A stretch of DNA of 64,000 nt, taken from positions 22,002 to 86,001 of the IMG/VR virus record IMGVR_UViG_3300035152_000026; one strand, 5' to 3'. The position numbers and the translations under genes are program-made. The notes beneath the pieces were generated by a model that ran no database searches, was not told the origin of the DNA, and was given only the letters and a program-made list of their open reading frames with translations. Positions 7,378 through 64,000 of the stretch are shown here, piece by piece (positions within the stretch are counted from its first letter, which is position 1; the number at the start of each line of letters is the position of its first letter). The DNA is from a virus.

Positions 7378-7962
7378 CTGCGTCCAGCCAGCGAAGCAGT
7401 GACTGGTACGGTGTCGAGCATGCCGTACCATCACATAGTGCGGGCGGCCATCTAACCACTCGATCAGCTTCCGTGGTCGCGCTCGGATGAACGCGCTGTC
7501 CGCGCCAATATCCCGGTTGGGGTACGCTCCGTAGCCGTGGAATCGCCGTGTAAATGCCAGCGTGCCGGGCGCGAGCCATCGATCGGTGGGCGTCTCCCAG
7601 AACGTGTCTGTAGCCTCTTCGTAGCTCCGAATCCCCCCAAACACGGACGCTTCTTTTCCGTCTCGGATAGCAGCTACCTGCACCGACACGCGAGCCGGCC
7701 CGTGCCAGTCATCGTCATCCCAGGTAACCAGGATGTCACCTTGCGCTAGCTGGACTAGCGCTTCGCGTTTCCAACCAAGAATCTTGCGCTCTTCCTGACG
7801 AACTAGCCGAATACGTGAGTCTTTTGGAACCGTAATGGCTGGATCGCCGTCGTCCAGGACAACGAGTTCACGCTCTGTGTAGTCCTGTGCGAGGAAGTCT
7901 ACGATAGCCTGCTGGGCGCGTTGTGGACGGTCAGCAGTCGGCATCAAACAGGACACGAGCAT
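7297..7962 (-). CDS. GT-A fold glycosyltransferase-like protein
   Basis: N-terminal SCLMPTADRP and a WDDDDWH acidic motif. Paralog of 15196..15990. The C-terminus overlaps the convergent gene by ~80 bp. Confidence 0.5.
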   Translation of the reverse strand: MLVSCLMPTADRPQRAQQAIVDFLAQDYTERELVVLDDGDPAITVPKDSRIRLVRQEERKILGWKREALVQLAQGDILVTWDDDDWHGPARVSVQVAAIRDGKEASVFGGIRSYEEATDTFWETPTDRWLAPGTLAFTRRFHGYGAYPNRDIGADSAFIRARPRKLIEWLDGRPHYVMVRHARHRTSHCFAGWTQLPRDRVLEFDVEVRVRRTAGIAGVDD

Positions 7963-8028: not shown

Positions 8029-11000
8029 ATGGCCACGCAACTGAAGAACATCATCGCGTTTACGGCAGTCGGAGCCGGCGCACAGCAAACTGTCGCTCAT
8101 GGTCTCAACATTGACGGTCGAGGGGTCACCCCCGACAAGCTGGAGTTCGACAACGGCGACTTCAGTTTTATCGCAGCCGACGCGACGAATGTGACAGTGC
8201 AAAACGATGGCGCAGGCGTTGCGAACTGCAATGTCATGTGTGAGCACTGGCTTACGGTCGAACGCACGTTCGGACCTGTTAGCATCACGTCACTTACACC
8301 ACAACCGTTCATCGTTGCAGGGTCTGGCGGCGGCGGCAGCAACGTAGCTGACTGGCTCGGTACAACGGGTGCGGATGTCAACGTTGGCAACGCAGCACCG
8401 CCCGTCGCTGGCCAGGTGCTCAAGGCGACAAATCCAACAACCGCAACCTGGCAAGCCGATAGCGGTGTGTCGAACCCGCTCATCCTCCAGACCGGCAACG
8501 GCACGGTCACAGCGCCCAATGCTTACGCGTCAGGCGCAATCGGACATGGCATCGACGGCGACGTGGGCACTGCCGATGTCCAGGTTGATCCTACCGCAGC
8601 CGGGCTCGCGATTGGTTGGACGGACTCTTATACGGGCGGGACGGCGAGAGTCAAAGCTGGTGGTTTCGGTGGTGGTGGTGGTGGTGCATTCGCTCATGGA
8701 TTCGCGACGCTTGGCGGGGCGTTCACTGCACTGATTGAAGCCGGGCATTCCGGATCGACTGCCTTCGGTTACGCGGATGGCAGTGGCGCAAACGCGTCGA
8801 TTCGATCACGGGGGCGAGGTTCACAGGCTTTTGGTTGGGTGAGTGGAGGAACCGATGCTGCATACATCTACGCCGATGGCAGCGGATCATTCGCGGGCGG
8901 CTTTGCTTACGGCGCGTACGGTGCGCTGACACGCATTCGTGCGCAAGTCAGCGGATCGATGGCCTTCGGCAAAGTGTTCGGAGGTTCTGTTCGCACGAGT
9001 CTCAATGGCGCTCTCGCTGTGGGCTGCGGCAACAACCAGGGTGACGTACATGCGAGCGGTCTCGGTGCTGTTGCGCTCGGCTACGGCACTTACGGAGGTC
9101 TTGTCGAGGCATCTGCCAGCGGATCTGGGGCGGCTGGTCACGCATATGGCGCGACTGGTACTGTGCAGGCGTCTGGCGCAGGTGGTTGGGCATTCGGATA
9201 CGCCTATGAAGGCGGTGTCTATGCGCTGGGTAGCGGATCATTCGCAGGTGGCTACGCCAAAGGTGTGGGCAGTGCCGTTCTTGCTACTCTTCGCGGCTCG
9301 GCTGCGTTCGGCGGTGCGTACGGTGGAGGAACCGTTGAATCGATCGATGCCGGTACGCTGGCCTCTGGCTACGCCTACTCCGGCGGTCTGATTCAGGCGG
9401 ATGGGCGTGGATCCCAGGCAATGGGTCTGGCTCAGAACAACGGTGACATCCTCACGAACGCCTACGGCGCGATGGCACGTGGTTTCTGTGACGGCAACAA
9501 CTCACAGATCACGGCGGCGGATCGTGGTGCGTTCGCGTCGGGTACCGCGTTGACGGATGGAGATCTTCTGGTTTTCGGCTACGGCTCACACGGTGTCGGC
9601 GATGTTCGTGACGGAGCCAAGATCGGTACAGCCGCTGCTAGCCATGGCTGCTTCGCTGGTGGCTATGCGAGCGATGGAGCATCGCTCATCTACTCGCGAG
9701 AAGGTGGCTGTTTCGCCTTCGGTCGAGCGCAGTTCGAGGGCGACATCACTGCACGTGGTGTAGGTGGCTTCGCGCTTGGGGCTGCGAACGGTACTGCGAC
9801 TTACGGCCACGCCAAGATCTACACGAACGCAACAGGCGGTCTCGCGCAAGGCTACGTACGCGACACCCAGCCTCTAGGCGTGCAGTTTTCACAGATCCTT
9901 TGCTACGGCAAGGGAGCGTTCTCCGCTGGTTACGTTAACCAGCGTGGTACGATCTCAGCGAGTGGTGGTGGAGCGCATGCAGGTGGCTACGCGTCATCAG
10001 CTGCTATCTATGCAGGCGGTGAAGTACCTGCAAGCATCGAAGCCAGCGCACTTGGCGCGTTTGCGCATGGATTTTCCAAGCGTCCAGTGACTGCTGGTGT
10101 AACTTCTTACATGCGTGCGAGTGCAGCGGGAGCCTGGGCCGGTGGTTACGCGATAGGATATCTTTCCACGAGTGCTATTGAAGCTCAGAGTAAAGGGTCC
10201 CTTGCGCATGGTTACGCCCTCTCAGGTACTATCTACGCTAGCGCGCAAGGCGCTTTCGCGTCCGGGTTCAGCTCACTCAACGGAAGTATCGACGCAAGTG
10301 GTTATGGCGCGCTCGCCGGTGGGAGCGCGTTAGCAGCGGGGATCAACAACGCCAACATACAGGCGCAAGGCGTTGGCGCGTTTGCATTCGGCACTGCTGC
10401 TACTGGATACCCTACTGTCGGTTACGAGAGCCGCCTTCGTGCCTACGGAAACGGATCTTGGGCGGGTGGCGATGCGATTGCTACCACCTATGGAATAGCA
10501 ACCTCGCGAATTCAGGCGCTTGATCACGGTGCTCTCGCACATGGCTACAACGTAGATAGCTACATCGAGGCGCAGTCGAAAGGTTCACAAGCGTTCGGCT
10601 TCGCGGACAGTGCTGGCTACATCTATTCGTCAGCGTATGGTGCGTTTGCGTCTGGCCACGCAAAAGACTCTGCATACATTTATGCGTCTGGCAAGGGCGC
10701 ACGTGCTCACGGGTACGGAAAGGGCGGGCTTGCTACAGCACGGATTGGAGCGAGTGGGGGAGGTGCATTCGCGTTCGGATACGTGACTGCTCTCGAAAGC
10801 GCGGCAGGAATTTTTGCAACTAGTCGCGGCACATTCGCTGGCGGTAGCGTGCAAGGAACCTACAACATCACCGCATCCTCATCCGGGGCGTTCGCGTTTG
10901 GTCGGGCCGACACAGGCAACATTCAAGCAACGGCTTCTAACGCTGTGCAGTTCGGTGTCGGTGTCAACAGTGCCTCGAACACGATGCAGATTGGCAGTGC

Positions 11001-12384: not shown

Positions 12385-12855
12385 ATGGCCCTCACCGCGA
12401 CCCTGGTCGAATCAACTGCGAATCGCCTCCGGTATCTTCTGGAGAACACATCTCCGCCAGGCACGACTGTCACCATCGCAAATGATGGTGGTGCCTCGCC
12501 AGACCTTCAAACGGACCTTGCAACCGACCCCTCGGGGCCACTTCGCAAGATCATTCGGGCGCGTCTCGATGGAATCGGCACAATCGCTGCTGGTACGCCA
12601 CTTACGCAAGCACAAGCTCGTGACATCCTCAACAGTGATGGCGGCGGCGCCAGCGTCGGCAACAATGCGGTCCCCCGTGCTATCTGCAAGGTGACGCCGC
12701 GTGCGGCAGGCACAACGGGCGTGGCCAACTGGGCAGTAGACGTGGACGTAGATGGCGACGGCGATCCGGTCGTGGTCATCACCACCCAGGACGCCGGCTT
12801 CGGCGACGGCGACGCCTATCTCGATATCCACGTTCGGCACAGTTACGATCTGTAG
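12385..12855 (+). CDS. paralog family A member 3
   Basis: Internal ATG with SD caaggagag. MALTATLVESTANRLRYL ... AYLDIHVRHSYDL. Confidence 0.6.
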   Translation: MALTATLVESTANRLRYLLENTSPPGTTVTIANDGGASPDLQTDLATDPSGPLRKIIRARLDGIGTIAAGTPLTQAQARDILNSDGGGASVGNNAVPRAICKVTPRAAGTTGVANWAVDVDVDGDGDPVVVITTQDAGFGDGDAYLDIHVRHSYDL

Positions 12856-16981: not shown

Positions 16982-18082
16982 TTGTCCAAGTATCTCATTC
17001 CCGTGTTGAACTACACACAAGCAGCCGCCGCGGTGGCCGCTGCCCTTCGCGCGAGGCGAACCGCACTGCTGCTAGGTTCGCCAGGCGTTGGCAAAACGGC
17101 CCTCGTGCGTGATGCTGCGGCCGCCATTGGGTTGCCTTGCCACGATCTGATCGCGTCCAACATGGACCCGACAGACGTCGCGGGGCTGCCATACCGCGAT
17201 CTACAGTCGGGTCGGGTGCTGCGCGAGCTGTTTCCCGAGATTCGGGCCGTCGTGGACGCTGCGGGTGTCTTATTCATCGACGAGGCGACCGCGATGCCGA
17301 AATCGGTCGAGGGCCCGATGCTACGTGTTGCGATGGAACGCAACGCAGGCGGCACGCCGTTGCACCCGGGCAGCCCCGTAGTACTCGCGTGCAACCCGCC
17401 GGAACAGGCACCGGGCGGCATCGAGCTGTCGGCGGCATTCATCAACCGGATCGTGCTGCTTCGCTATCAGCCCTCATTCGCGGAAGTGCAGTCCTACTTC
17501 AACGGTGAGGCGGTTCACGCTTCTCCCGTAGTGCTCGACGAGGACGCCTTCCAGGCCGCATGCGTTGCGGAGTTCGCTGACTTCGCCGCGACGCTTTCCC
17601 ACGCTACTGATCTGCTCGTTTATGATCCGCCGCGTGCAAGCGTTGATCAGGGCGAGCCGTGGGCATCCCCTCGCGGCTGGGAGATCGGCCTCTCCTGCCT
17701 GGCAGCGCATGGCGGTAAAGAGGATGACGTTGGCTACGCGCTCCTGACAGGTGCCGTAGGACCGTCCGCTGCTGGCGCGTACCTGGCAATTCGCAAGCTC
17801 CGTCTGCACCTGCCATCCATCGATGAGATCGCGGCCAACCCAACCAAGGCACGGCTGCCCGAATCGCTCGATCAGCAGATCGCTGCCCTGGGTCTCCTGG
17901 CCCGAGTCGCGCAGACCGATGTCTGGGCCGCGTGGACCTACGCGGGCCGGCTGCGGAAAGAGATTGGAGCTGCCTGCGGACGGTTCCTAATGAACAAGGT
18001 GCCGCAGGCCTCTAAGTTCGCCACCGTCGGGCGCAAAGCCCAAATCCAACTGCTGGCAAGAGTGCAGCGTGGGGCAGCATGA
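16982..18082 (+). CDS. MoxR-like AAA+ ATPase
   Basis: Walker A GSPGVGKT, Walker B LFIDEA. TTG start after a GGCCCCGAGGGGC motif and ggagga SD. Confidence 0.8.
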   Translation: MSKYLIPVLNYTQAAAAVAAALRARRTALLLGSPGVGKTALVRDAAAAIGLPCHDLIASNMDPTDVAGLPYRDLQSGRVLRELFPEIRAVVDAAGVLFIDEATAMPKSVEGPMLRVAMERNAGGTPLHPGSPVVLACNPPEQAPGGIELSAAFINRIVLLRYQPSFAEVQSYFNGEAVHASPVVLDEDAFQAACVAEFADFAATLSHATDLLVYDPPRASVDQGEPWASPRGWEIGLSCLAAHGGKEDDVGYALLTGAVGPSAAGAYLAIRKLRLHLPSIDEIAANPTKARLPESLDQQIAALGLLARVAQTDVWAAWTYAGRLRKEIGAACGRFLMNKVPQASKFATVGRKAQIQLLARVQRGAA

Positions 18083-19311
18083 CATCAGCGACCAGACAGC
18101 TCATCCAGCGTGCCCGAGGGCTTTTGTTGGGCCTTGGTTGGCGACACCCATTCTTTGCTCTACCCGGTGCGAAGATCTACCTGCGTGTGTCCATCCACAT
18201 CCAGACTGCTTGTGCTGACGTACGTGGATGCGTGTACCTCAATCCGAGTTTCTGCGATCAGCTCTCGGACAAGCAGCTTACCTTCGTTCTGGCGCACGAG
18301 ATCATGCATCTGCTGCTGTTTCACTTTGGGCGGCGAATGAACCGCAAGCCGTTCCGCTGGAATCGTGCCGCGGATCGCGCAATCAACTTCGGTCTCGTGC
18401 AAATAGGGCTGGAAATGCCGCCCATGGGGTTACTTCCCACCGACCCGGCGCATAACGAGTACACAACAGAAGAACTCTACGAGGTCGAGGAAGAACAGCC
18501 AGGCGATGACGGTCAAGCCTCGCTGGGCAAGATGCCCGGAGCAACCGGTGGTTGTGGCGTGCTTCCACCTCAGGGTGGTGATGGCGATGGTGATGACGAT
18601 GGCGCCGAGGGTGAAGCACCAGAAGACGGCGCGGCGTTTCCCTCCACAGCTGAGTCAGCACGGACCTGGCGGCAGCTTGCTCACAGCGCTGAGCAGAACG
18701 CGCGCTCGGCAGGCGACTGCTCTGGAGATCTGCTTGCACGCGTGCTCCGCGTTCCACCATCCAAAGTGGCGTGGACTGCGGTGCTACGCAACGCATGTGC
18801 ACGTGCAATCGCTGAACGCGGCAACGACGACGTTAGTTGGCAGCGACGCAACCGGCGGTCGTTCGCGGGCGACTTCATTCTCCCAGGTGGAATCACGTCC
18901 AAGGCACTCGTCGCTGTGGCGGTAGACACCAGCGGTTCTGTCTCTGACGAAGACCTCGAACAAGCACTCAGCGAGGTGGAAGCAATCAGCCGTGCGACGG
19001 GTGTGGCCATATTTCTGGTCACACACGACGCGGAGGTGCACTTCGCCGACTGGATCCGTCCCGGCACACGACGAGCTGCTCTCGCCAAGACTCTGATCGG
19101 TCGCGGCGGAACGCTATACACGCCTGCGTACGCGGCCATCGAGAGCGCCAGCAAGAAGTTCGACTACGCGATCCATCTGACAGACGGTATGCCGTGTGAG
19201 ACGTGGCCTGAACGGCCGCGCAACTGCCGTAAGCTGACCGTCGCCTTGATCGGTTACGCGAGCAGAAAAGAAATTCCTGAGTTCGCTGATGTCATCGAGA
19301 TAGAAATCTGA
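18079..19311 (+). CDS. VWA-domain protein with N-terminal putative metallopeptidase domain (DUF2201-like)
   Basis: HEIMHLLLFH HExxH motif. VAVDTSGSVS MIDAS-like motif. ATGA-coupled to the MoxR ATPase. Confidence 0.75.
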   Translation: MTSATRQLIQRARGLLLGLGWRHPFFALPGAKIYLRVSIHIQTACADVRGCVYLNPSFCDQLSDKQLTFVLAHEIMHLLLFHFGRRMNRKPFRWNRAADRAINFGLVQIGLEMPPMGLLPTDPAHNEYTTEELYEVEEEQPGDDGQASLGKMPGATGGCGVLPPQGGDGDGDDDGAEGEAPEDGAAFPSTAESARTWRQLAHSAEQNARSAGDCSGDLLARVLRVPPSKVAWTAVLRNACARAIAERGNDDVSWQRRNRRSFAGDFILPGGITSKALVAVAVDTSGSVSDEDLEQALSEVEAISRATGVAIFLVTHDAEVHFADWIRPGTRRAALAKTLIGRGGTLYTPAYAAIESASKKFDYAIHLTDGMPCETWPERPRNCRKLTVALIGYASRKEIPEFADVIEIEI

Positions 19312-21342: not shown

Positions 21343-22631
21343 GCCGCGAACGAGACCGCCGCGCGCCAGGGGCACTACCCCATGCGACACCGCAACGTGG
21401 TGGCGGATCACCCGGCAAGCGTACGCGCGTGCAGGCGCGTTACGGCAACGTTCCACCACCAATGCTGCCGCGACCTGAGATCGCGCAAGCAACCGTTCGA
21501 GCGCAATCCTGGGACGGCGAGCCCAAAGACATCTCGAATCTTCGCGAGGGGGACCTCGTGGACGTCACACTGCAACTCGATAGCCCTGACTGGCGTGATA
21601 TGTACGTGACGCCTTACGTTGTCGGTGCGAGTCCCGTACTCGAATCCATCGAGCACATGGCTCCCTGGGAGGGAACGCGTGACACGTACCACTTCGCGTT
21701 GCGCGCCACAGGAAAGCTGGGCACGGTTACCCCAAAAGCCGTGCTTGCGTTCAGCGGCACCGACGAAGACACCGAGTACGAGTTCATGGCCAGCTGCACG
21801 ATGGACCTAGCTCAGTTCGAGGATCAATGCCATGTCGCCTCAGAACACGCTATGCTGGCGTTCCATCGCATGGCTGAAATTCTGACCGCCGAGGGCGCAG
21901 CGTATTTCAAGGCGTACAAGCAATTCGAGACTGTGTTGGAGACGCCGCCTGATGACTCTCTGGCGGAAACGCTGCTGCTTGCCGCGCTCACACTGCTAGC
22001 CGGTGCTGGCGGTAGCACGGTTGGAAGTCTCCTCAAAGGTGGCAGCAAAGAGATTGGCCGCGTGGCGTTCGCGGACAGCATGAAGGACCTGGTGAAGTTC
22101 AGCATCAAGAAAGGCGCGGGCGATCTTGGTAGTGAGCCGCCGTCGCTAGAAGGGGGTCCCGCAGAGCCCTTCCAGTGGTATATGCACATGTCCGGTCAGC
22201 TGCACGGTCAAATGCAGTTCGTGCAGGAGGTCATCGACAGTTGGCGGCGTTCGGTTCGAGCGCATCGAATGCTCGCGGACTTCGATCCCGCGGTCGTCAT
22301 TCAAACGCATTTGCAGTTTGACGGCGCACCTATGACTACTCGTCCGATGCCGGACGTGGCGCAGCTTGAACGCAGTTTCGAGCTTGCGATCTGGCAAGCG
22401 TGGTTGACTGACTATGGGTATGTCCTCGCGCGCTCTCCAGTATACGTTCCGCAGACCGGTCGTGGGGCGCTCACAGTGCAACAGAACTTCAACGACGCTG
22501 TCATCGAGCGCTTGGACGCCCTGGGTGTTGATGGCGCTGCTTGGGTCGTACGCTTCAGTGGCCACGCGAAGGCTGCCGTAGAAAAGACGTTGAAGAAACG
22601 CAGCCTGGAAGAATACGAAAACAACCGTTGA
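21339..22631 (+). CDS. hypothetical protein (430 aa)
   Basis: ATGA overlap. Long ORF with coding bias. Confidence 0.6.
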   Translation: MSRERDRRAPGALPHATPQRGGGSPGKRTRVQARYGNVPPPMLPRPEIAQATVRAQSWDGEPKDISNLREGDLVDVTLQLDSPDWRDMYVTPYVVGASPVLESIEHMAPWEGTRDTYHFALRATGKLGTVTPKAVLAFSGTDEDTEYEFMASCTMDLAQFEDQCHVASEHAMLAFHRMAEILTAEGAAYFKAYKQFETVLETPPDDSLAETLLLAALTLLAGAGGSTVGSLLKGGSKEIGRVAFADSMKDLVKFSIKKGAGDLGSEPPSLEGGPAEPFQWYMHMSGQLHGQMQFVQEVIDSWRRSVRAHRMLADFDPAVVIQTHLQFDGAPMTTRPMPDVAQLERSFELAIWQAWLTDYGYVLARSPVYVPQTGRGALTVQQNFNDAVIERLDALGVDGAAWVVRFSGHAKAAVEKTLKKRSLEEYENNR

Positions 22632-23576: not shown

Positions 23577-23871
23577 TACACGTGAGAAGGCACGGGTAGC
23601 ACACGCAGAAGCGCTGGATGCACTTCAGAAGTGGTCTACTGCGAACGAAAAGCGTATGCAGCTAGCAGCTCAAGTAGCGCAAGCGGAGACGTTGAATACC
23701 AGTAACGCGAACATCGCCACGATCTATCAGCAGCTGTGTGATGAGGAGATGTTATGCGCGGGATGGGCTATCGTCGCCATGGCCAAAGCACAGCAGCTAA
23801 CGATGCAAGCCTACGATGAGTTGGCCCCCGAACCGCTTTTGTCAGTCTCGCATGGTACTACCGAGGAATGA
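23569..23871 (+). CDS. hypothetical coiled-coil protein
   Basis: Internal ATG overlapping the upstream stop. Confidence 0.4.
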   Translation: MNDTREKARVAHAEALDALQKWSTANEKRMQLAAQVAQAETLNTSNANIATIYQQLCDEEMLCAGWAIVAMAKAQQLTMQAYDELAPEPLLSVSHGTTEE

Positions 23872-24857
23872 CTGATTCACCAAAGCTGGCTGCGGACTCC
23901 GGTGACGTAGACTCCAACGACCCCGAAGTCGTGCTTGTCGATGGACGTAAACTCACGTTCGAGAACCTGACACCACGTCAGTCTTGGGCAGCTTTGGCAC
24001 GGGTTCATCTACAACAAGCCAATTTCCAGCGACGTAACTACGCTGGCTTCGAGCTAGCGGGACTCGACTTACGACACTCAAACTTGGCCGCGTGCGACTT
24101 CGCAGGTGCGAATCTTAGTGCCGTGAATCTAGACAACGCAAATCTCGACAGCGCGCTTTTCGTCAGCGCGAAAATGCAGGCCGCTGAGTTGGGTACGACG
24201 AATCTCCCTGACACCGACTTCAGCAGCGCGGATCTACGTGGTGCAACATTCATTAACTGCAACGCGTTCGGTGCAATATTCGACAAGGCCAAGCTACGCA
24301 AGGCGAAATTCACGCATAAGTCACGTTTCGCCTTCACGTCGTTTGAGTATGCGGATCTGCGTTACGCGGAGCTGAACGAAGTCGATTTCTCCGGTGCGTG
24401 CTTGGACAACGCAGACCTGAGTCATGCAGTAATCAAGGAAGCAGACTTCACCGGCGCCTCACTGTGTGGCGCCAAGCTGCACCACACAGTACTGGGGAAT
24501 GCAATCTTCGCGAATGCAGACCTCTCCAACGTAGACTTCGACTTTCTTTCACGCCTGTCGGTTGGTGCGTACTCCGACTTCACTGGGATGAAACTCAACG
24601 GCGCGCGAAACGTCCCCGAGGATTTTCATCAATGGGGGGTGCTGAACGAGTTGCAGCCGCTACTTCGACGTGTACCCCAGCCGCTACTTCGCACTAGCGA
24701 GGTTGGTCTCGATCACGTAACGACAGGCTTACGCAAGCTGTGGCTCGACCGTGCTGTCAGCGGCGTGGATTTCTTGCTCGAACCCTTAGATGAGCTGATG
24801 GACGCAGCTTACGCGATAGCGATTGCAATCGCGCCGAAGAATAAATCCAGGTTCTAA
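23868..24857 (+). CDS. pentapeptide-repeat protein
   Basis: Tandem A(D/N)LxxAxL pentapeptide repeats over ~200 aa. Confidence 0.7.
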   Translation: MTDSPKLAADSGDVDSNDPEVVLVDGRKLTFENLTPRQSWAALARVHLQQANFQRRNYAGFELAGLDLRHSNLAACDFAGANLSAVNLDNANLDSALFVSAKMQAAELGTTNLPDTDFSSADLRGATFINCNAFGAIFDKAKLRKAKFTHKSRFAFTSFEYADLRYAELNEVDFSGACLDNADLSHAVIKEADFTGASLCGAKLHHTVLGNAIFANADLSNVDFDFLSRLSVGAYSDFTGMKLNGARNVPEDFHQWGVLNELQPLLRRVPQPLLRTSEVGLDHVTTGLRKLWLDRAVSGVDFLLEPLDELMDAAYAIAIAIAPKNKSRF

Positions 24858-39469: not shown

Positions 39470-39775
39470 ATGCTTCACGGAATCAAAGCTATCATTACAG
39501 TCGGCGTCATTGCTGTTCTGTTGACTGCCATCGGTTTGGGCACGCGGTACTTCGGGCTTTGGGGTGAGACGCGTATCGAGCGGAAGGTCTTCGAGGAGAG
39601 CTATCAGCGCTCAGAGGGCTTGAAGGCGCAGATCGCGAATGACGAGGCGGTGCTTGCTGAGATCAACGCCCAGCTCGAAAACCCCGAGCTGGATACGACA
39701 ACCCGCGCCAACCTGGAAGCTCAGGCGCGGGCAACTCGAATTCGCCTTCGCACTGCGAGGGCTCAACAGAACTGA
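39470..39775 (+). CDS. membrane-anchored coiled-coil protein
   Basis: SD aaggagaca. N-terminal TM helix. Confidence 0.5.
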   Translation: MLHGIKAIITVGVIAVLLTAIGLGTRYFGLWGETRIERKVFEESYQRSEGLKAQIANDEAVLAEINAQLENPELDTTTRANLEAQARATRIRLRTARAQQN

Positions 39776-39785
39776 GGAGAAGACG

Positions 39786-40391
39786 ATGAGGATGATGCGA
39801 CAGGACTGGATAGCTGCGTTGGCCGTGCTGGTGCTCTTCGGCTGCAAGAGCGATGGCGGTTGTGAGGACGAGGGCGGATGTGGTGATGACACAGCATCGT
39901 CTGAAGACACAAAAGTGGTCGCGCGACAACAGGCGCAGTACGCCAAAGCGCAGCCCATCCCTGTTTTCAACTGGTCGTTGGAACGTCAGCTCGTGATCGA
40001 GCTGTACAAGGTACGCAACCAGAAGGCCAACACTCACTCGGTCTGGCGCTCAGACTACGGTATGGTTGAGGGCGATTGCCCGTCCTACGGTTATGGTATT
40101 CCCTACGACACGAGCTTGACCAATCCGCTGGTTGCCACTGACATCGACGACGAAGGCGAGGAGAATGGTAGTGGCGCACTTACGTCCATCGAACAGCCAG
40201 AACCCAACGGCATCTTCGCCTCGAAGAACACGGCCGCAACCTGGGTACTCTGCCTCGGTGAGTCTGGCCAGCTCGAACCCGTCTATGTCGAGACCAAGGT
40301 TACGGTCTACCCGGGACCGGTGGTAGTAGACTACGCAACCAACCGCGTGACCCGGTCTGGTGCCTCCAACGTCTTGATCCCGAAGAGATGA
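39786..40391 (+). CDS. putative lipoprotein
   Basis: SD gaggagaag. LVLFGC lipobox. Confidence 0.55.
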   Translation: MRMMRQDWIAALAVLVLFGCKSDGGCEDEGGCGDDTASSEDTKVVARQQAQYAKAQPIPVFNWSLERQLVIELYKVRNQKANTHSVWRSDYGMVEGDCPSYGYGIPYDTSLTNPLVATDIDDEGEENGSGALTSIEQPEPNGIFASKNTAATWVLCLGESGQLEPVYVETKVTVYPGPVVVDYATNRVTRSGASNVLIPKR

Positions 40392-43734: not shown

Positions 43735-43830
43735 CAGATCTGAGCCCTTGAGGCGCCCAGAGCGAGATATGCGCTAAGTACTTGATAATATTAAGATATT
43801 ATAGGTAAATTTGCCAGTTGACGATAATAC
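43735..43830. promoter_or_regulatory. AT-rich island upstream of int (candidate attP / int promoter)
   Basis: tacttgataatattaagatattataggtaaatttgcc is strongly AT-rich against a ~62% GC background and contains imperfect inverted repeats. Confidence 0.35.
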
Positions 43831-44914
43831 CGGTTGTCGGGCAAGCTCTCAGATCATGTCCGAGGGAACCGACCTGATCCCGCGCCCACCCTGGCAAATT
43901 AGGCCCTCAGACGCTGCTCTGAGCCCCGATCTGCAAGACCGCCTAGAGGAGGCACTCCTGGCGTTCCGGCGCACCCTGGACTCCCCAGAGAGCGTACGCG
44001 GCTACCGTGACGACTGGCGCCGCTGGGTGGCTTGGCTCTCCGCCGAAGGGGTCCATCCACTGCACGCGCTGCCCCTGCACGTTCTGCGCTATCTCGTGAG
44101 CATGCAGGACGCTGGCAGGGCGAAGACGACGCGCTCACGCGCACTGGCCGTGATCCGTTCGACCTACGCCGCGCTGGTAGTTGCGTTCTCGGAGGTGCCT
44201 GGGGTGCTAGACGCAAACCCCGCGCGCGAGGTCCGAAACATCAAAGTGGATCACGAGCCGAAGACGCCCTGGCTCGCAGAAGACGAAATGCGCCGTCTCC
44301 TAATACGGCCGCCGTCAACCGCGCCGTGGGTAGAACGTCGCGATTGGGTTATCTGCGCCACGCTAGCAGGTACGGGTTGGCGTCGAGCGGAGATCGCACG
44401 CCTTCGTCGTGATGCGCTCCTCGACACCCCTGGTGGCTTCGCTGCGCAAGTGCACGCGAAAGGTGGCAAGGATGCCATCGTGCCACTTCCAGTTTGGTTG
44501 TCGCACGAGCTGGCGGAATGGTGCCAAGCCAATCGTATCGACGCAGGGCCAATATTCCCGCGACGCGAAGGCGCCGACGTGGCCGTTGGCCCCACGACAG
44601 TCAGGAACGCCGTGAAGCGATCAGCGGAACGCGCAGGGCTCGACCTGACACGCGCAACACCTCATGCGATTCGGCGTTCGTTCGCGACGATTACAGGTCA
44701 GCGTGGCGTCTCAATCGAAGATCGTCAGGCGGCGATGCTACATGCCTCAAAGGCGACAACAGAGCGCTACGACAAAGCGAGCAAACTGCCAGCACAAGCA
44801 CCCGGCGAAGTGCTTCGCGATCTTGTCGAGCCATCGAATGGCGAAGCAAACGCCGCCGCATCAAATGACACGCAGCCAAAAACTTGGCCGCCGCGTCGAG
44901 CTGATTACGAGTGA
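43811..44914 (+). CDS. int: tyrosine recombinase / phage integrase
   Basis: C-terminal catalytic motifs HAIRRSF and TTERYD (R...HxxR...Y). Preceded by an AT-rich region. Confidence 0.85.
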   Translation: MPVDDNTGCRASSQIMSEGTDLIPRPPWQIRPSDAALSPDLQDRLEEALLAFRRTLDSPESVRGYRDDWRRWVAWLSAEGVHPLHALPLHVLRYLVSMQDAGRAKTTRSRALAVIRSTYAALVVAFSEVPGVLDANPAREVRNIKVDHEPKTPWLAEDEMRRLLIRPPSTAPWVERRDWVICATLAGTGWRRAEIARLRRDALLDTPGGFAAQVHAKGGKDAIVPLPVWLSHELAEWCQANRIDAGPIFPRREGADVAVGPTTVRNAVKRSAERAGLDLTRATPHAIRRSFATITGQRGVSIEDRQAAMLHASKATTERYDKASKLPAQAPGEVLRDLVEPSNGEANAAASNDTQPKTWPPRRADYE

Positions 44915-60747: not shown

Positions 60748-61017
60748 ATGAACAACAACAAGCTGAGACCAACTGTCGAGGACGCTCACGCCGCTTCCAG
60801 GTGGGGATTTGCTAACACATTCACTGCTCGCTCGGTCGCCTTAGCGGTAGCGCAACGGCTCGGCCCCGATGACCGTGAAGGCGCTTGGTGGTACGCAAAG
60901 GTTCGGGTGTGTGCGCGAAATGCCCTTGAAGAGTGGCTACGTGAAAAAGTAATCGAGGCGGCCCCCCGATCAGGACAACCGACCGAATATCGATTCGTGA
61001 AGAAGGAGAGAACATGA
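60748..61017 (+). CDS. hypothetical protein
   Basis: SD aggagcag. Confidence 0.4.
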   Translation: MNNNKLRPTVEDAHAASRWGFANTFTARSVALAVAQRLGPDDREGAWWYAKVRVCARNALEEWLREKVIEAAPRSGQPTEYRFVKKERT

Positions 61018-61838
61018 GGGCAATCGTATTGGCTGAGATCAACAGTGACGGCACGCAAGGTGAGGTGCACACCTGCCGCGGCAGTGTGATCAAGATTGGA
61101 AAAATGAAACGCTCGGGGTTGAAGCTCAACCATCCTTCAGTCAGTCGGATGCACGCGGTGTTCGAGTGCGAGCCTGGAGGCATTGTCCACCTAGTCGATC
61201 TGGGTAGCGTGCAAGGTACGTTCATCAACGAGAAGCAGATCAACAAAGCAGCCGTCAAAGTCGGCGACACGGTTCGTTTTGGTGACGTGATGCTCGCGGT
61301 TCGTGAGATTACGGACGAGGATGACACAGATGAAGCTGAAGCTGAAGCTGAAGCTGAAGCTGAAGCTGAAGCTGAAGCTGAAGCTGGTACCGCAGATGCA
61401 GCCTCTACAGGGCTCAGCGATCTCGCGGCCCGTATTGATCGGCTCAAACGTATCCGCAACATATACAGTGCAGGAGCTGCGCAGAGCAGCGCCGAGGTAC
61501 CGAGCATAGGAAAGCTGGCCAGTACTGCCATCGTCCACAGCGTACTCGACGCCAACGCGCCAAAACAAATCGCTGACGTGATCAACGATGTCTGTGACAA
61601 CGTTGCCGAGCTGCGCAAAATCGCGTCCGCTGACCGTGTTACGCAAGCGCTGGACGGTCTCATCCAAGACTGGGCGCCTGTGTTGCAGGTCATCGGTAAG
61701 TACAGGGAGGCGAACGTCGAACGTACTGCGTTGTTCCGTGCCGGCTTGATCAAGAAGCTCAAGGACGAATTCGATCTGAGCGAGGCCAACGCAGTGGAGA
61801 TCGTTCAATCAGCGTCGGAAACGTCCAACCTGACTTGA
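61014..61838 (+). CDS. FHA-domain protein with (EA)n linker
   Basis: N-terminal FHA signature (GSVIKIGK...VSRMHAVFE...LVDLGSVQGTFIN). Then (EA)x13 encoded by a GAAGCT tandem repeat. Confidence 0.7.
   Translation: MRAIVLAEINSDGTQGEVHTCRGSVIKIGKMKRSGLKLNHPSVSRMHAVFECEPGGIVHLVDLGSVQGTFINEKQINKAAVKVGDTVRFGDVMLAVREITDEDDTDEAEAEAEAEAEAEAEAEAGTADAASTGLSDLAARIDRLKRIRNIYSAGAAQSSAEVPSIGKLASTAIVHSVLDANAPKQIADVINDVCDNVAELRKIASADRVTQALDGLIQDWAPVLQVIGKYREANVERTALFRAGLIKKLKDEFDLSEANAVEIVQSASETSNLT
61332..61386 (+). repeat. (GAAGCT)n hexanucleotide microsatellite, about 9 copies
   Basis: Encodes the (EA)n linker in the FHA-domain protein. Confidence 0.85.
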
Positions 61839-61883
61839 GGAGAGATAGCGAAGACGCTATCGATGAGGAGGAGGAAAACGCTG

Positions 61884-62192
61884 ATGACAGATGATCCCGC
61901 ACACGAATACACGGTTCCTGGCGGTGCTGCGGCAGCCCTCTCGACAATGCGCCCTGAGATGGCCCGTATCGTGGCCACACAGCTTCGTGAGGGCATCCTG
62001 CAACCGCTGTCGCCAGAAGAGCAAGCTGGCCTTCTCGACCTGGTAGCTGACCTCATTCAGCGTGTCAGCGATGACCAGGATCAACTCCGCGATATTCTAC
62101 TCACGGTGCGTGGAATCCGCGAATACGGTAAAGGCCTACAAGGCATGTCGGAGAAGATCATTGCAGCTCTAGCTGCTTGCAACGTTGGTTGA
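61884..62192 (+). CDS. hypothetical protein
   Basis: SD gaggagg. 102 aa. Confidence 0.45.
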   Translation: MTDDPAHEYTVPGGAAAALSTMRPEMARIVATQLREGILQPLSPEEQAGLLDLVADLIQRVSDDQDQLRDILLTVRGIREYGKGLQGMSEKIIAALAACNVG

Positions 62193-62196
62193 ATGG

Positions 62197-62210
62197 GGCT
62201 CCGAGGAGCC
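62197..62210 (+). promoter_or_regulatory. GGCTCC-GA-GGAGCC variant motif upstream of the Cas12-like gene
   Basis: Perfect 6-2-6 inverted repeat with the same GA centre, 16 nt upstream of ATG 62227. Confidence 0.4.
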
Positions 62211-62226
62211 AAGCAAAGGAGCATGT

Positions 62227-63810
62227 ATGCCAGCACGCGTTTACAAGTATGGAGCCCGCCCTAGCCAAGATCCGAACTTGCTCAGGCAGATGAGGCTAGG
62301 CCGTCAGTACTACAACGCGCTCGTTGAAGCGGAGAACAAGCGGCGCCAAATCGGATGGGGCGGCGAATCTCCGCCACCACCACCGCACCGAGGTAGATGT
62401 CAGTGCGAGAAGTGCCAAGATGCATGGGCGAAGACGTCGCCTCCCCACGAGAAGTACGACTGCGACTGCGCTGAGTGCGAAAAGCACCGCGAGGCGCACC
62501 CGGCAGAGCACGACAACTGTAAGTGTGCGGCTTGCCGCGCGCACTGGAATGCAGTGTGGGCAGCTACCCGTGCTATACCGCTACTCGACGTTCGTCCATT
62601 ACGAACTACATGGGCGGCGAAAGGACTCTACTGGGGAACCTACAACGTGATCGAACAGGCCTTCTCGGCAGCCTGGCAACACACGTCTCTGCTCCGCCCG
62701 GTGAAATTCCGGTCGTGGCGCAAAGGAGACGTCGCGGCCGTCCAAATTCAACCCGGAAGAGATCCTCATCGGTACGTACAGACTCACAAAGCGCCAGACG
62801 CACGGACAGGAAGACGTACACGTAACGGACTTGGACGGCACACGGTAGAAATTAGGATCGGCAGCAATGGGGCTACACCCATTTTCTGCACCCCGATCCG
62901 CATAGAAAAGCACCGCGAGCTGTCTGGACAAATCACACATGTCCATGTGCGGCGGCGTTACAATGCCGATCAGCAGGTTTGGTCGGTCGCGTTCACTTGC
63001 AAGGATGCTGACCCAAGGACGGACGCGGCCGAGGAAGGCGTCGTTGCGGTAGACGTCAGCTGGCGCAAGATGCCTGACGGCTCCTGGCGATTGGGCTACG
63101 CGCGTGATGCGGCCGGTCACGTGAGTGAGCTACGCATGCCAGTCAGTTGGACGGCACGCGCTGACCGTGCGGAGAAGATCCACTCACACCGTGACAAGCG
63201 CCTCAACGAAGTACGGGCGTGCTGGCCTGTAGTCGGTAAGACGAAATCCTGCCAAAAGGCTGTACGAAGACTACGTAGTCTAGGAGTACTCACCGCGGAT
63301 CAAGACGCGTGGGTTGCACGCGAAATGCATCTCTGGCGGTATGAGTGCGGTTGCTGGCGGCGTAGCCGAACCGGACGTCGCGCAGCGCTGCGTGAATGGG
63401 TGCGTGAGCTACGCTGTCAATACGCGGCTGTCATCGTCAAGAATACAGGGCACAAGAAGATCAAGGAGGAACACGGGCTGCCTCAGAAGGCTCAACGGCA
63501 AGGACAACATGCGGCACCAGGAGAAACAGTGGAGGTGCTACGGGAAGTGTTTGGCGCCGATGGAATGCGGATCGTAGAAGCGAAGCACACGAGTGCGCGT
63601 TGCCCCGATTGTGGCACAATCACTCCCGTGAACGGACAACGCATGCTTCGTTGCGAGGGGTGTGGTACGCAACGAGACTGCGACGACATAAGCACCCGAA
63701 ACATGTGGGCCCTCTACCAAGCCGGCAAATGGAAAAAACCTACCGCTCGAAAAACGACCTCCAGGTTCGCGAAACGGCACAAGAAAAACGAGGTGCCCCC
63801 GGAATGCTAG
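62227..63810 (+). CDS. compact TnpB/Cas12-like RNA-guided nuclease homolog (527 aa)
   Basis: SD aaggag. RuvC-I-like VVAVDVS. Conserved VEAKHTSARCPDCG...CEGCG zinc finger followed by RDCDDISTRNM RuvC-III-like segment. Stop codon embedded in the first CRISPR-like repeat. Confidence 0.8.
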   Translation: MPARVYKYGARPSQDPNLLRQMRLGRQYYNALVEAENKRRQIGWGGESPPPPPHRGRCQCEKCQDAWAKTSPPHEKYDCDCAECEKHREAHPAEHDNCKCAACRAHWNAVWAATRAIPLLDVRPLRTTWAAKGLYWGTYNVIEQAFSAAWQHTSLLRPVKFRSWRKGDVAAVQIQPGRDPHRYVQTHKAPDARTGRRTRNGLGRHTVEIRIGSNGATPIFCTPIRIEKHRELSGQITHVHVRRRYNADQQVWSVAFTCKDADPRTDAAEEGVVAVDVSWRKMPDGSWRLGYARDAAGHVSELRMPVSWTARADRAEKIHSHRDKRLNEVRACWPVVGKTKSCQKAVRRLRSLGVLTADQDAWVAREMHLWRYECGCWRRSRTGRRAALREWVRELRCQYAAVIVKNTGHKKIKEEHGLPQKAQRQGQHAAPGETVEVLREVFGADGMRIVEAKHTSARCPDCGTITPVNGQRMLRCEGCGTQRDCDDISTRNMWALYQAGKWKKPTARKTTSRFAKRHKKNEVPPEC

Positions 63811-64000
63811 CTCGATGGCTACTCAATCGAGACAGTCGGGTGTGCGTTTCAAACCACTGGCGCAGCCGCCCCGGAATGCCAGCTCGATGACTACTCAATC
63901 GAGACAGCTCGCGTGCAATTGCCGCGGCCAAAGCTTTCTGCCACCCGAAATGCTAGCTCGATGGCTACTCAATCGAGACGCGTAGCGGAAGCCAGTTCGC
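63798..64000 (+). CRISPR. CRISPR-like array (at least 3 repeats of 36 nt; continues past window end)
   Basis: Repeats at 63798-63833, 63870-63905 and 63944-63979 (CCCGGAATGCTAGCTCGATGGCTACTCAATCGAGAC with 1-2 substitutions). Spacers 36 and 38 nt. Internal hairpin CTCGAT/ATCGAG. Confidence 0.6.

Follow-up and report, generated by a model that had tools for sequence, protein, structure and literature searches.

An effector gene that ends inside a repeat array

The stretch analysed here, 64,000 nt of the IMG/VR virus record IMGVR_UViG_3300035152_000026 (positions 22,002 to 86,001 of that record; hereafter the window), carries at its 3' end a gene for a Cas12m-like protein and, on the same strand, the first units of a CRISPR array. 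The effector gene (62227-63810, + strand) codes for a 527-aa protein of the Cas12m-like (type V-M / V-U1-like) kind, V-U1 being what V-M/Cas12m used to be called (PMC12607003); with a TTG at 62185 as alternative start, the product would have 541 aa. Repeat 1 begins 10 nt ahead of the effector stop codon (TAG, 63808-63810), which occupies positions 11-13 of that repeat, so that gene and array overlap. Gene and array are probably transcribed together; a scan for sigma-70-like promoters in 61700-64000 gave none, but this is weak evidence.

Sequence inspection and repeat detection identified three copies of the 36-nt unit CCCGGAATGCTAGCTCGATGGCTACTCAATCGAGAC: repeat 1 (63798-63833), repeat 2 (63870-63905) and repeat 3 (63944-63979), all on the + strand, 94-100% identical and with start-to-start periods of 72 and 74 nt. 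They are separated by spacer 1 (63834-63869, +; 36 nt), for which no match elsewhere was found, and spacer 2 (63906-63943, +; 38 nt), and are followed by the first 21 nt of spacer 3 (63980-64000, +), the array continuing past the window end. A covariance model built from the repeats of relatives recovered exactly these three units in the 128 kb searched, with E values of 4e-6 to 2e-5 (repeat 1: 35.4 bits, E 5.5e-6), the next match having an E value of 0.036. An Rfam scan of 62000-64000 with E up to 10 returned neither CRISPR-DR nor any other family. A solitary repeat-like element, GTCTGGCCAGCTCGAACCCGTCTATGTCGAGAC, lies at 40262-40294 (+) within the open reading frame (ORF) 39639-40391; it scored 18.6 bits (E 0.036), lacks the pseudoknot pairing described below and could be a chance match.

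A preliminary description of this DNA had already read the units as a CRISPR array, arguing that the substitutions among them spare the hairpin stem, as would fit selection on RNA structure. The substitutions are exactly those it listed (T11C and G21A in repeat 2, G5A in repeat 3), all three leave the CTCGAT/ATCGAG stem (repeat positions 14-19 and 29-34) intact, and the spacer lengths of 36 and 38 nt are as it gave them. The argument itself is not significant, given that three changes would all miss a 12-nt stem in a 36-nt unit with a probability of (24/36)^3, about 0.30. Folding of a single repeat, which had been put forward as a check, gave a structure no better than shuffled sequences (z -0.5 to -1.6). 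The G+C counts of the spacers need correcting from 22/36 and 24/38 to 23/36 (63.9%) and 23/38 (60.5%), with 58.9% for the window, and spacer 2 had been printed with 39 letters, the final c of which is part of repeat 3. Kinship of the spacers with each other or with adjacent sequence, as expected of a degenerate minisatellite, was not found: their local alignment scores (5-6) equal the shuffle means, and neither spacer has a match in the 64 kb with up to 3 mismatches. What stands is the reading as a structured repeat array, on other grounds than the three substitutions. The units are a real CRISPR array and not a minisatellite because the spacers are unique and unrelated, the architecture is found family-wide with up to 30 units, and two helices of the repeat covary, the stem doing so across 68 distinct repeats.

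These helices were assessed in two alignments, one with one repeat per locus (16 sequences) and one with 150 covariance-model hits (68 distinct sequences). Both support a 6-bp stem (repeat positions 14-19 with 29-34; 63811-63816 with 63826-63831 in repeat 1, + strand) and a 3-bp pseudoknot between positions 9-11 and loop positions 20-22 (63806-63808 with 63817-63819 in repeat 1, + strand). In the larger alignment 98.7% of the cells are paired (98.5% for the pseudoknot), against 26-43% in slid controls, and 134 cells show double changes, against 39 ± 8 in shuffles, none of 500 shuffles reaching 134; double changes occur in 7 of the 9 pairs. Positions G13, A35 and C36 are invariant or nearly so. 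The 5' flank and the loop, to which the preliminary description had assigned T11C and G21A, are not unstructured: both changes fall in the covarying pseudoknot. T11C turns a U.G pair into C-G, and G21A leaves a C10.A21 mismatch in repeat 2, the sole break of a pair kept in 67 of the 68 distinct repeats. Since the fifth repeat of a related locus (L002) has the compensated U10-A21 version, repeat 2 looks like an uncompensated intermediate. The G.U pairs appear as such on the + strand only, and the + strand is therefore the transcribed RNA.

The stem-plus-pseudoknot geometry agrees with that of the published CRISPR RNAs (crRNAs) of Cas12m2 and PmCas12m, in which a stem (-23..-20)/(-6..-3) and a pseudoknot (-28..-26)/(-17..-15) are accompanied by a G:A pair and by a C(-1) that a His-Arg pair recognises (PMC10442227; preprint 10.64898/2026.03.26.714355). 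An anti-repeat was sought in the window and none was found, so there is no sign of a trans-activating CRISPR RNA (tracrRNA). A 15-nt inverted match (14/15) links 62914-62928, in the effector gene, to 63899-63913, made up of the end of repeat 2 and the initial 8 nt of spacer 2; chance alone would give about 0.2 matches of this kind in this 2-kb region.

The effector family and its arrays

Pfam recognised only the Cas12f1-like TNB zinc ribbon (PF07282) in the effector, and NCBIfam had no model for it. A homologue search yielded 36 relatives of 470-530 aa, 35-76% identical and all metagenomic, and a profile was built from an alignment of 35 of them. Against the sequences of the Protein Data Bank (PDB) this profile matched the Cas12m protein 23vw_A with an E value of 4.7e-44 (profile positions 8-465) and Cas12m2 with 3e-24; PDB Cas12f sequences were similar only in the TNB ribbon (E 0.02) and gave a weaker fold match than Cas12m. 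The best PADLOC model was Cas12u1, with E values of 1e-35 to 1e-50 over the full-length profile, and the "Cas12f" model PDLC01692 came just under it over the same span. The effector shows the features of the Cas12m fold: a WED domain, a small REC lobe with a helical insertion, a split RuvC domain and a TNB zinc ribbon. Its residues H229/R230, invariant or nearly so in the family, align with the crRNA-reading pair H269/R270 of Cas12m2. The virus protein structures of BFVD offered TnpB- and Fanzor-like proteins only (best E 3e-14, template modelling score up to 0.54), none as close as Cas12m2. By sequence, profile and fold, the best match is type V-M (Cas12m; e.g. MmCas12m2, PDB 8hhl; PDB 23vw; GoCas12m; PmCas12m); whether to file the family inside V-M or beside it is a matter of judgement.

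Some members, the window protein included, have a Cys/His-rich insertion in REC (CQCEKCQ…CDCAECEKH…CKCAAC; aa ~55-100, 62390-62525), modelled with low confidence (predicted local distance difference test score 57-71). After it comes a CxxCxxHW motif (C100, C103, H106), nearly invariant and maybe a zinc site.

When 1.84 billion representatives were searched exhaustively with the profile, 4645 relatives emerged, of which 1597 had E values below 1e-30; the clade of the window protein scores above ~480 bits. An identical 527-aa product is encoded in a public assembly, on a contig of 2.47 kb that stops at the gene; the exact 541-aa ORF has no record in the databases searched. Comparison of the locus DNA with GenBank phages gave no match, nor did a tblastn search of the effector against 50,697 GenBank phages, and the same search against plasmids gave a single remote match (26% identity). 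A pattern scan for the effector family in 185,579 species genomes was negative and hence offered no host clue. Loci at 22-29% identity with similar repeats came out of the IMG/VR scan, in which viral contigs of 13-245 kb carry 4 close and 14 distant relatives.

The metagenomic or viral homologues of 470-530 aa number about 40. Related loci were fetched from public assemblies, IMG/VR and one Joint Genome Institute metagenome, and about 25 were inspected. Nearly all of them have a same-strand array of 3 to 30 units that begins at, or a few nt from, the end of the effector gene; its 36-nt repeats close with a hairpin plus AC, and the modal spacer length is 35-39 nt. The stop codon of most loci falls within repeat 1, frequently in the hairpin loop (GGCYTAGAA or GGYYTGAAA), so that translated repeat makes up the C-terminal tails, which vary from protein to protein (…NASPAA, …NTSPPV, …PPEC). 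Long arrays of 20-30 diverse spacers occur in loci L003, L004 (30 units) and L030.

A related array is that of L032 (Ga0316577_10033675), the only related contig obtained when the metagenome was scanned for the rest of the window array. Its effector is 62% identical to the window's, and its repeats (at least 16, 1911-2863) match the window repeat at 35 of 36 positions. The G5A change of repeat 3 is also present in distal repeats of L032, which makes it an inherited variant. A spacer of L032 (2797-2832) is near-identical to window spacer 2: the first 19 nt are identical, followed by a 2-nt indel and one substitution. The distal part of the L032 array contains truncated spacers (3-21 nt) and one broken repeat. 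The shared spacer and the truncated ones indicate that these arrays are inherited and decay. The 19-nt identity fits the functional Cas12m guide, measured at about 17-20 nt (preprint 10.64898/2026.03.26.714355).

Repeats were also seen apart from the main arrays, as solo repeats or mini-arrays (L029:4603-4638, L028:4533-4568, L009:4500-5428 and 12612-12647, L007:8752-8954, L029:7387-7511). One solo repeat of L029 lies 26 nt upstream of the effector start codon, just past a strong hairpin, such that the 5' untranslated region of the effector takes the position of a spacer. At L007:6913-7182 six repeats follow each other with a period of just 44-50 nt, leaving spacers of ~10-14 nt that are too short for normal guides, and spacers of 12-25 nt also occur within the arrays of L002, L003/L004 and L031.

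RuvC site, spacer targets and predicted mode of action

At the RuvC-II position, Cas12 and TnpB proteins have a catalytic glutamate. In the window protein this position is K405 (codon 63439-63441, +), a lysine invariant in all 35 aligned family sequences; its counterparts in the alignment are the catalytic Glu of 23vw_A and, in the H-D-D triad of Cas12m2, the middle Asp. The RuvC-I aspartate D276 (codon 63052-63054, +), likewise invariant, aligns with an Asp of 23vw_A and a His of Cas12m2. The four cysteines of the TNB zinc ribbon (C459, C462, C476 and C479; PF07282) and the RuvC-III aspartate D486 (63682-63684) that follows them, together at 63601-63684 (+), are invariant columns that align with Cas12f and Cas12m. 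Among the sequences retrieved from the exhaustive search, D-K-D is the triad in 39 of 43 proteins with scores of 290 bits or more; lower-scoring relatives, of ~550-640 aa, have D-E-D in 102 of 135 cases, the remainder being N/H variants known from Cas12m. The triad of Cas12m2 is HDD (PMC10442227), and Cas12m proteins with non-canonical triads bind DNA but do not cut it (PMC10442227, PMC11013384). The lysine at a metal-binding position predicts the loss of two-metal DNA hydrolysis, and its invariance in place of the RuvC-II Glu points to RNA-guided DNA binding without cleavage; judged from its sequence, the effector probably silences DNA by binding rather than by cutting.

Taken together, we consider it probable that the window contains a minimal, adaptation-less, crRNA-only V-M-like CRISPR-Cas locus (effector plus array start) on a phage-like element, belonging to type V-M or standing beside it, for which we propose a binding-only mechanism. 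The array would extend the effector mRNA, being transcribed on the + strand. In each repeat, as the covariation shows, a 6-bp stem encloses a 9-nt loop whose first three bases pair with positions 9-11 in the pseudoknot, the fold being closed by the conserved G13/A35 juxtaposition and the 3' C. The 527-aa effector would bind this 5' handle through its WED domain, with H229/R230 acting, as the alignment suggests, in the way of H269/R270 of Cas12m2, and, by analogy with the Cas12m studies, the first ~17-20 nt of the downstream spacer would serve as guide. The complex would then form an R-loop on double-stranded DNA flanked by a protospacer-adjacent motif (PAM) and stay bound, blocking transcription or replication without cutting. 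Its most likely targets would be competing mobile elements and maybe, judging from one relative, the element's own genes.

That relative is L027, where the spacer at 7567-7602 is identical (36/36) to 9568-9603 on the same strand, 2 kb downstream in its own element. The self-target lies in a 64-nt intergenic gap (9547-9610) and ends 7 nt ahead of the next start codon. It is the only self-target among 142 distinct spacers of all loci, with only ~6-10 kb around each array being searchable. A perfect self-target would not be tolerated by a cutting enzyme but would be tolerable for a DNA-binding repressor. PHROGs assigned no function to the neighbours of the target, and a sigma-70 promoter scan around it found nothing. 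For the window spacers, whose G+C content the preliminary description had thought compatible with targets in related phages or the host chromosome, comparison with phages and plasmids gave chance matches only (E of 2 or more), the pattern conserved in spacer 2 found no protospacer in IMG/VR or the species genomes, and spacer 1 and the window repeat were absent from IMG/VR. The arrays of L004 and L030 did not match phages, and the L027 and L004 spacers retrieved only the array itself from IMG/VR.

An effector that is instead an active RNA-guided DNase, comparable to CasPhi/Cas12j or to the D-E-D Cas12m proteins and destroying competing phages and plasmids through D276, D486 and a substitute carboxylate, is in our view unlikely. 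The two aspartates are indeed invariant, E433 is conserved in at least 90% of the aligned family sequences, the nearest lower-scoring relatives are mostly D-E-D, and CasPhi provides the example of a compact phage-encoded nuclease that processes its own crRNA in the RuvC site (PMC8298400). However, every member of the alignment has a positively charged lysine at the metal-binding RuvC-II position, and E433 is not invariant, being K in sequence P0005 and W in P0031. Cleavage by Cas12m2 was not regained even when D-E-D was restored (PMC10442227), and the self-targeting spacer of L027 would kill the carrier of a cutter.

The same spacer lends some weight to the idea that the system regulates the phage's own or host genes, as a guide-directed repressor analogous to TldR whose inherited "spacers" are fixed operator-recognition modules and not immune memories. 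The L027 match sits just upstream of a gene and near its array, no adaptation genes occur in the window, one spacer is conserved between elements with effectors just 62% identical, solo repeats and mini-arrays are scattered in relatives, and nuclease-dead TnpB relatives acting as transcription factors provide a precedent (PMC10705468). Against this, the self-target is a single case within the small regions searched, the gene downstream of it has no assigned function in PHROGs, the window spacers lack a self-match in their 64 kb, and the long arrays of L003, L004 and L030 resemble immune memories; as an account of the window locus we hold gene regulation to be improbable, somewhat more so than an active DNase. 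It has a bolder form, suggested by the perfect intergenic self-target of L027: a virus-restricted clade of the smallest known crRNA-only Cas12 effectors (470-530 aa), with the RuvC Glu fixed as Lys and the gene ending in its own first repeat, whose inherited spacers would be programmable operators repressing own or host genes, that is, a CRISPR-derived transcription-factor circuit. We regard this as a doubtful, though not a negligible, proposal.

A non-CRISPR origin of the units, by tandem duplication as in a minisatellite or by duplication of a TnpB omega-RNA region beside a transposon gene, is effectively refuted, and hardly credible, by the unique and unrelated spacers, the repeat-spacer architecture of up to 30 units throughout the family, the two covarying helices, the full-length match to Cas12m and not TnpB, and the conserved position of the effector gene in non-transposon, phage-like contexts.

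The reading as a binding-only V-M-like locus shares several traits with type V-M: a single small effector with an array, without tracrRNA signal and without adaptation genes in the window; a crRNA handle with a stem and 3-bp pseudoknot ending in A-C (PMC10442227; preprint 10.64898/2026.03.26.714355); the conserved His-Arg pair; a non-canonical RuvC triad; and carriage by mobile elements (PMC11656645). It also departs from V-M. The effector stop codon lies within repeat 1, and all finds of the clade come from viral or metagenomic contigs, with none in the scanned species genomes or GenBank phages. Other differences and gaps weigh against the reading itself. Proteins of this clade have 470-530 aa, compared with about 577-614 aa in Cas12m (~70-100 aa shorter), a very small REC lobe and just 18-19% identity to the solved Cas12m proteins. 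The triads published for the four Cas12m clades (HEK/HQK, HDD, DED/NED and DED/DND/NED; PMC10442227) do not include D-K-D. The proposed loss of cleavage depends on one residue, and with D276 and D486 invariant some RuvC chemistry may persist, for example pre-crRNA processing, or nicking via a relocated carboxylate such as E433. The candidate PAM is the 5' flank of the L027 protospacer, GCGGGT (GGT; n=1, possibly a non-PAM self site), and differs from the TTN/YTN PAMs reported for Cas12m. For the window spacers, searches of the window, GenBank phages, PLSDB plasmids, IMG/VR and species genomes yielded no protospacer. With no more than three repeats in view, a pseudoknot pair broken in repeat 2 and decay (truncated spacers) in related arrays, this array could be partly degenerate. 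Finally, the phage nature of the window is deduced from relatives on IMG/VR contigs.

Known systems and the surrounding element

Repeat shape and phage context had initially suggested membership of CasPhi, whose repeats are 36 nt long with a 3' hairpin ending in GAC. The window system does resemble CasPhi/Cas12j of huge phages in being phage-borne, hypercompact and crRNA-only. Membership was ruled out by size, triad and similarity: Cas12j/CasPhi proteins have 700-800 aa and a catalytic D-E-D, whereas the effector has 527 aa and D-K-D, and its CasPhi matches are far weaker than those to Cas12m. Cas12f (V-F), a dimer of 400-700 aa, depends on a tracrRNA, and no anti-repeat was found in the window. 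The locus is also unlike TnpB/omega-RNA (IS200/IS605) and the TranC intermediates in having many repeat-spacer units with diverse spacers, an inactivated RuvC-II, an extra helical insertion and a full-length profile match to Cas12m. A TnpB element comprises a protein of ~400 aa with an active D-E-D and a single omega-RNA; here the protein has 527 aa and no transposon context was seen, although transposon ends were not specifically searched. With TldR the effector would share the nature of a compact, RuvC-inactivated, RNA-guided DNA binder, and the L027 self-target suggests a regulatory use in common (PMC10705468). TldRs, however, use a single omega-RNA-like guide and no repeat-spacer arrays, and they have no particular kinship in sequence with the effector, none having been tested for.

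Cas12m and its binding-only mechanism are already known. Plasmids are enriched in type V-M, which some prophages also carry (PMC11656645); viromes have given glimpses of viral Cas12m-like proteins (PMC12607003), and one 610-aa D-E-D phage Cas12m was recently described (preprint 10.64898/2026.09.14.751636). For the compact clade, with its 470-530 aa, invariant D-K-D, gene/repeat overlap and apparent viral or metagenomic restriction, we found no description in the literature. If the prediction is true, its members would be natural nuclease-dead, crRNA-only, programmable DNA binders of ~500 aa, some 100 aa below the size of the Cas12m proteins that are being turned into base and epigenome editors. 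The main interest of the locus is this potential as a natural DNA binder of very small size, together with the self-targeting lead. An adaptation-less, binding-only phage system with a self-targeting and a conserved spacer would make viral use of CRISPR testable, as gene regulation versus competition between elements. For the origin of CRISPR arrays from TnpB omega-RNAs, both the overlap of gene and repeat and the pseudoknotted handle are relevant.

On indirect evidence, the window resembles the non-structural portion of a large phage or phage-like element. The label "phage", under which the preliminary description had placed it, is supported by the relatives on IMG/VR contigs; on the other hand, the 76 window ORFs of at least 90 aa had no capsid, portal, terminase or tail match in PHROGs, and PADLOC found no cas1, cas2 or cas4 among them. 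The window genes are mostly same-strand hypotheticals, along with genes for an HNH protein, a kinase, an integrase (43811-44914), a pentapeptide-repeat protein (23868-24857) and a 752-aa NUDIX-containing protein (354-2612, - strand). A MoxR-type AAA ATPase and a DUF2201 (metallopeptidase/VWA) protein form a pair at 16982-19311, and the same pair lies upstream of the effector in the 81.5-kb viral contig L003. Nearer to the effector, the ORF 61014-61838 contains a perfect TGAAGC x9.3 tandem repeat (61331-61386) that encodes (Glu-Ala)n. Its counterpart in L002 (7810-8631) has FHA/Yop-YscD domains and lies downstream of the effector, whereas the ORF in the window lies upstream.

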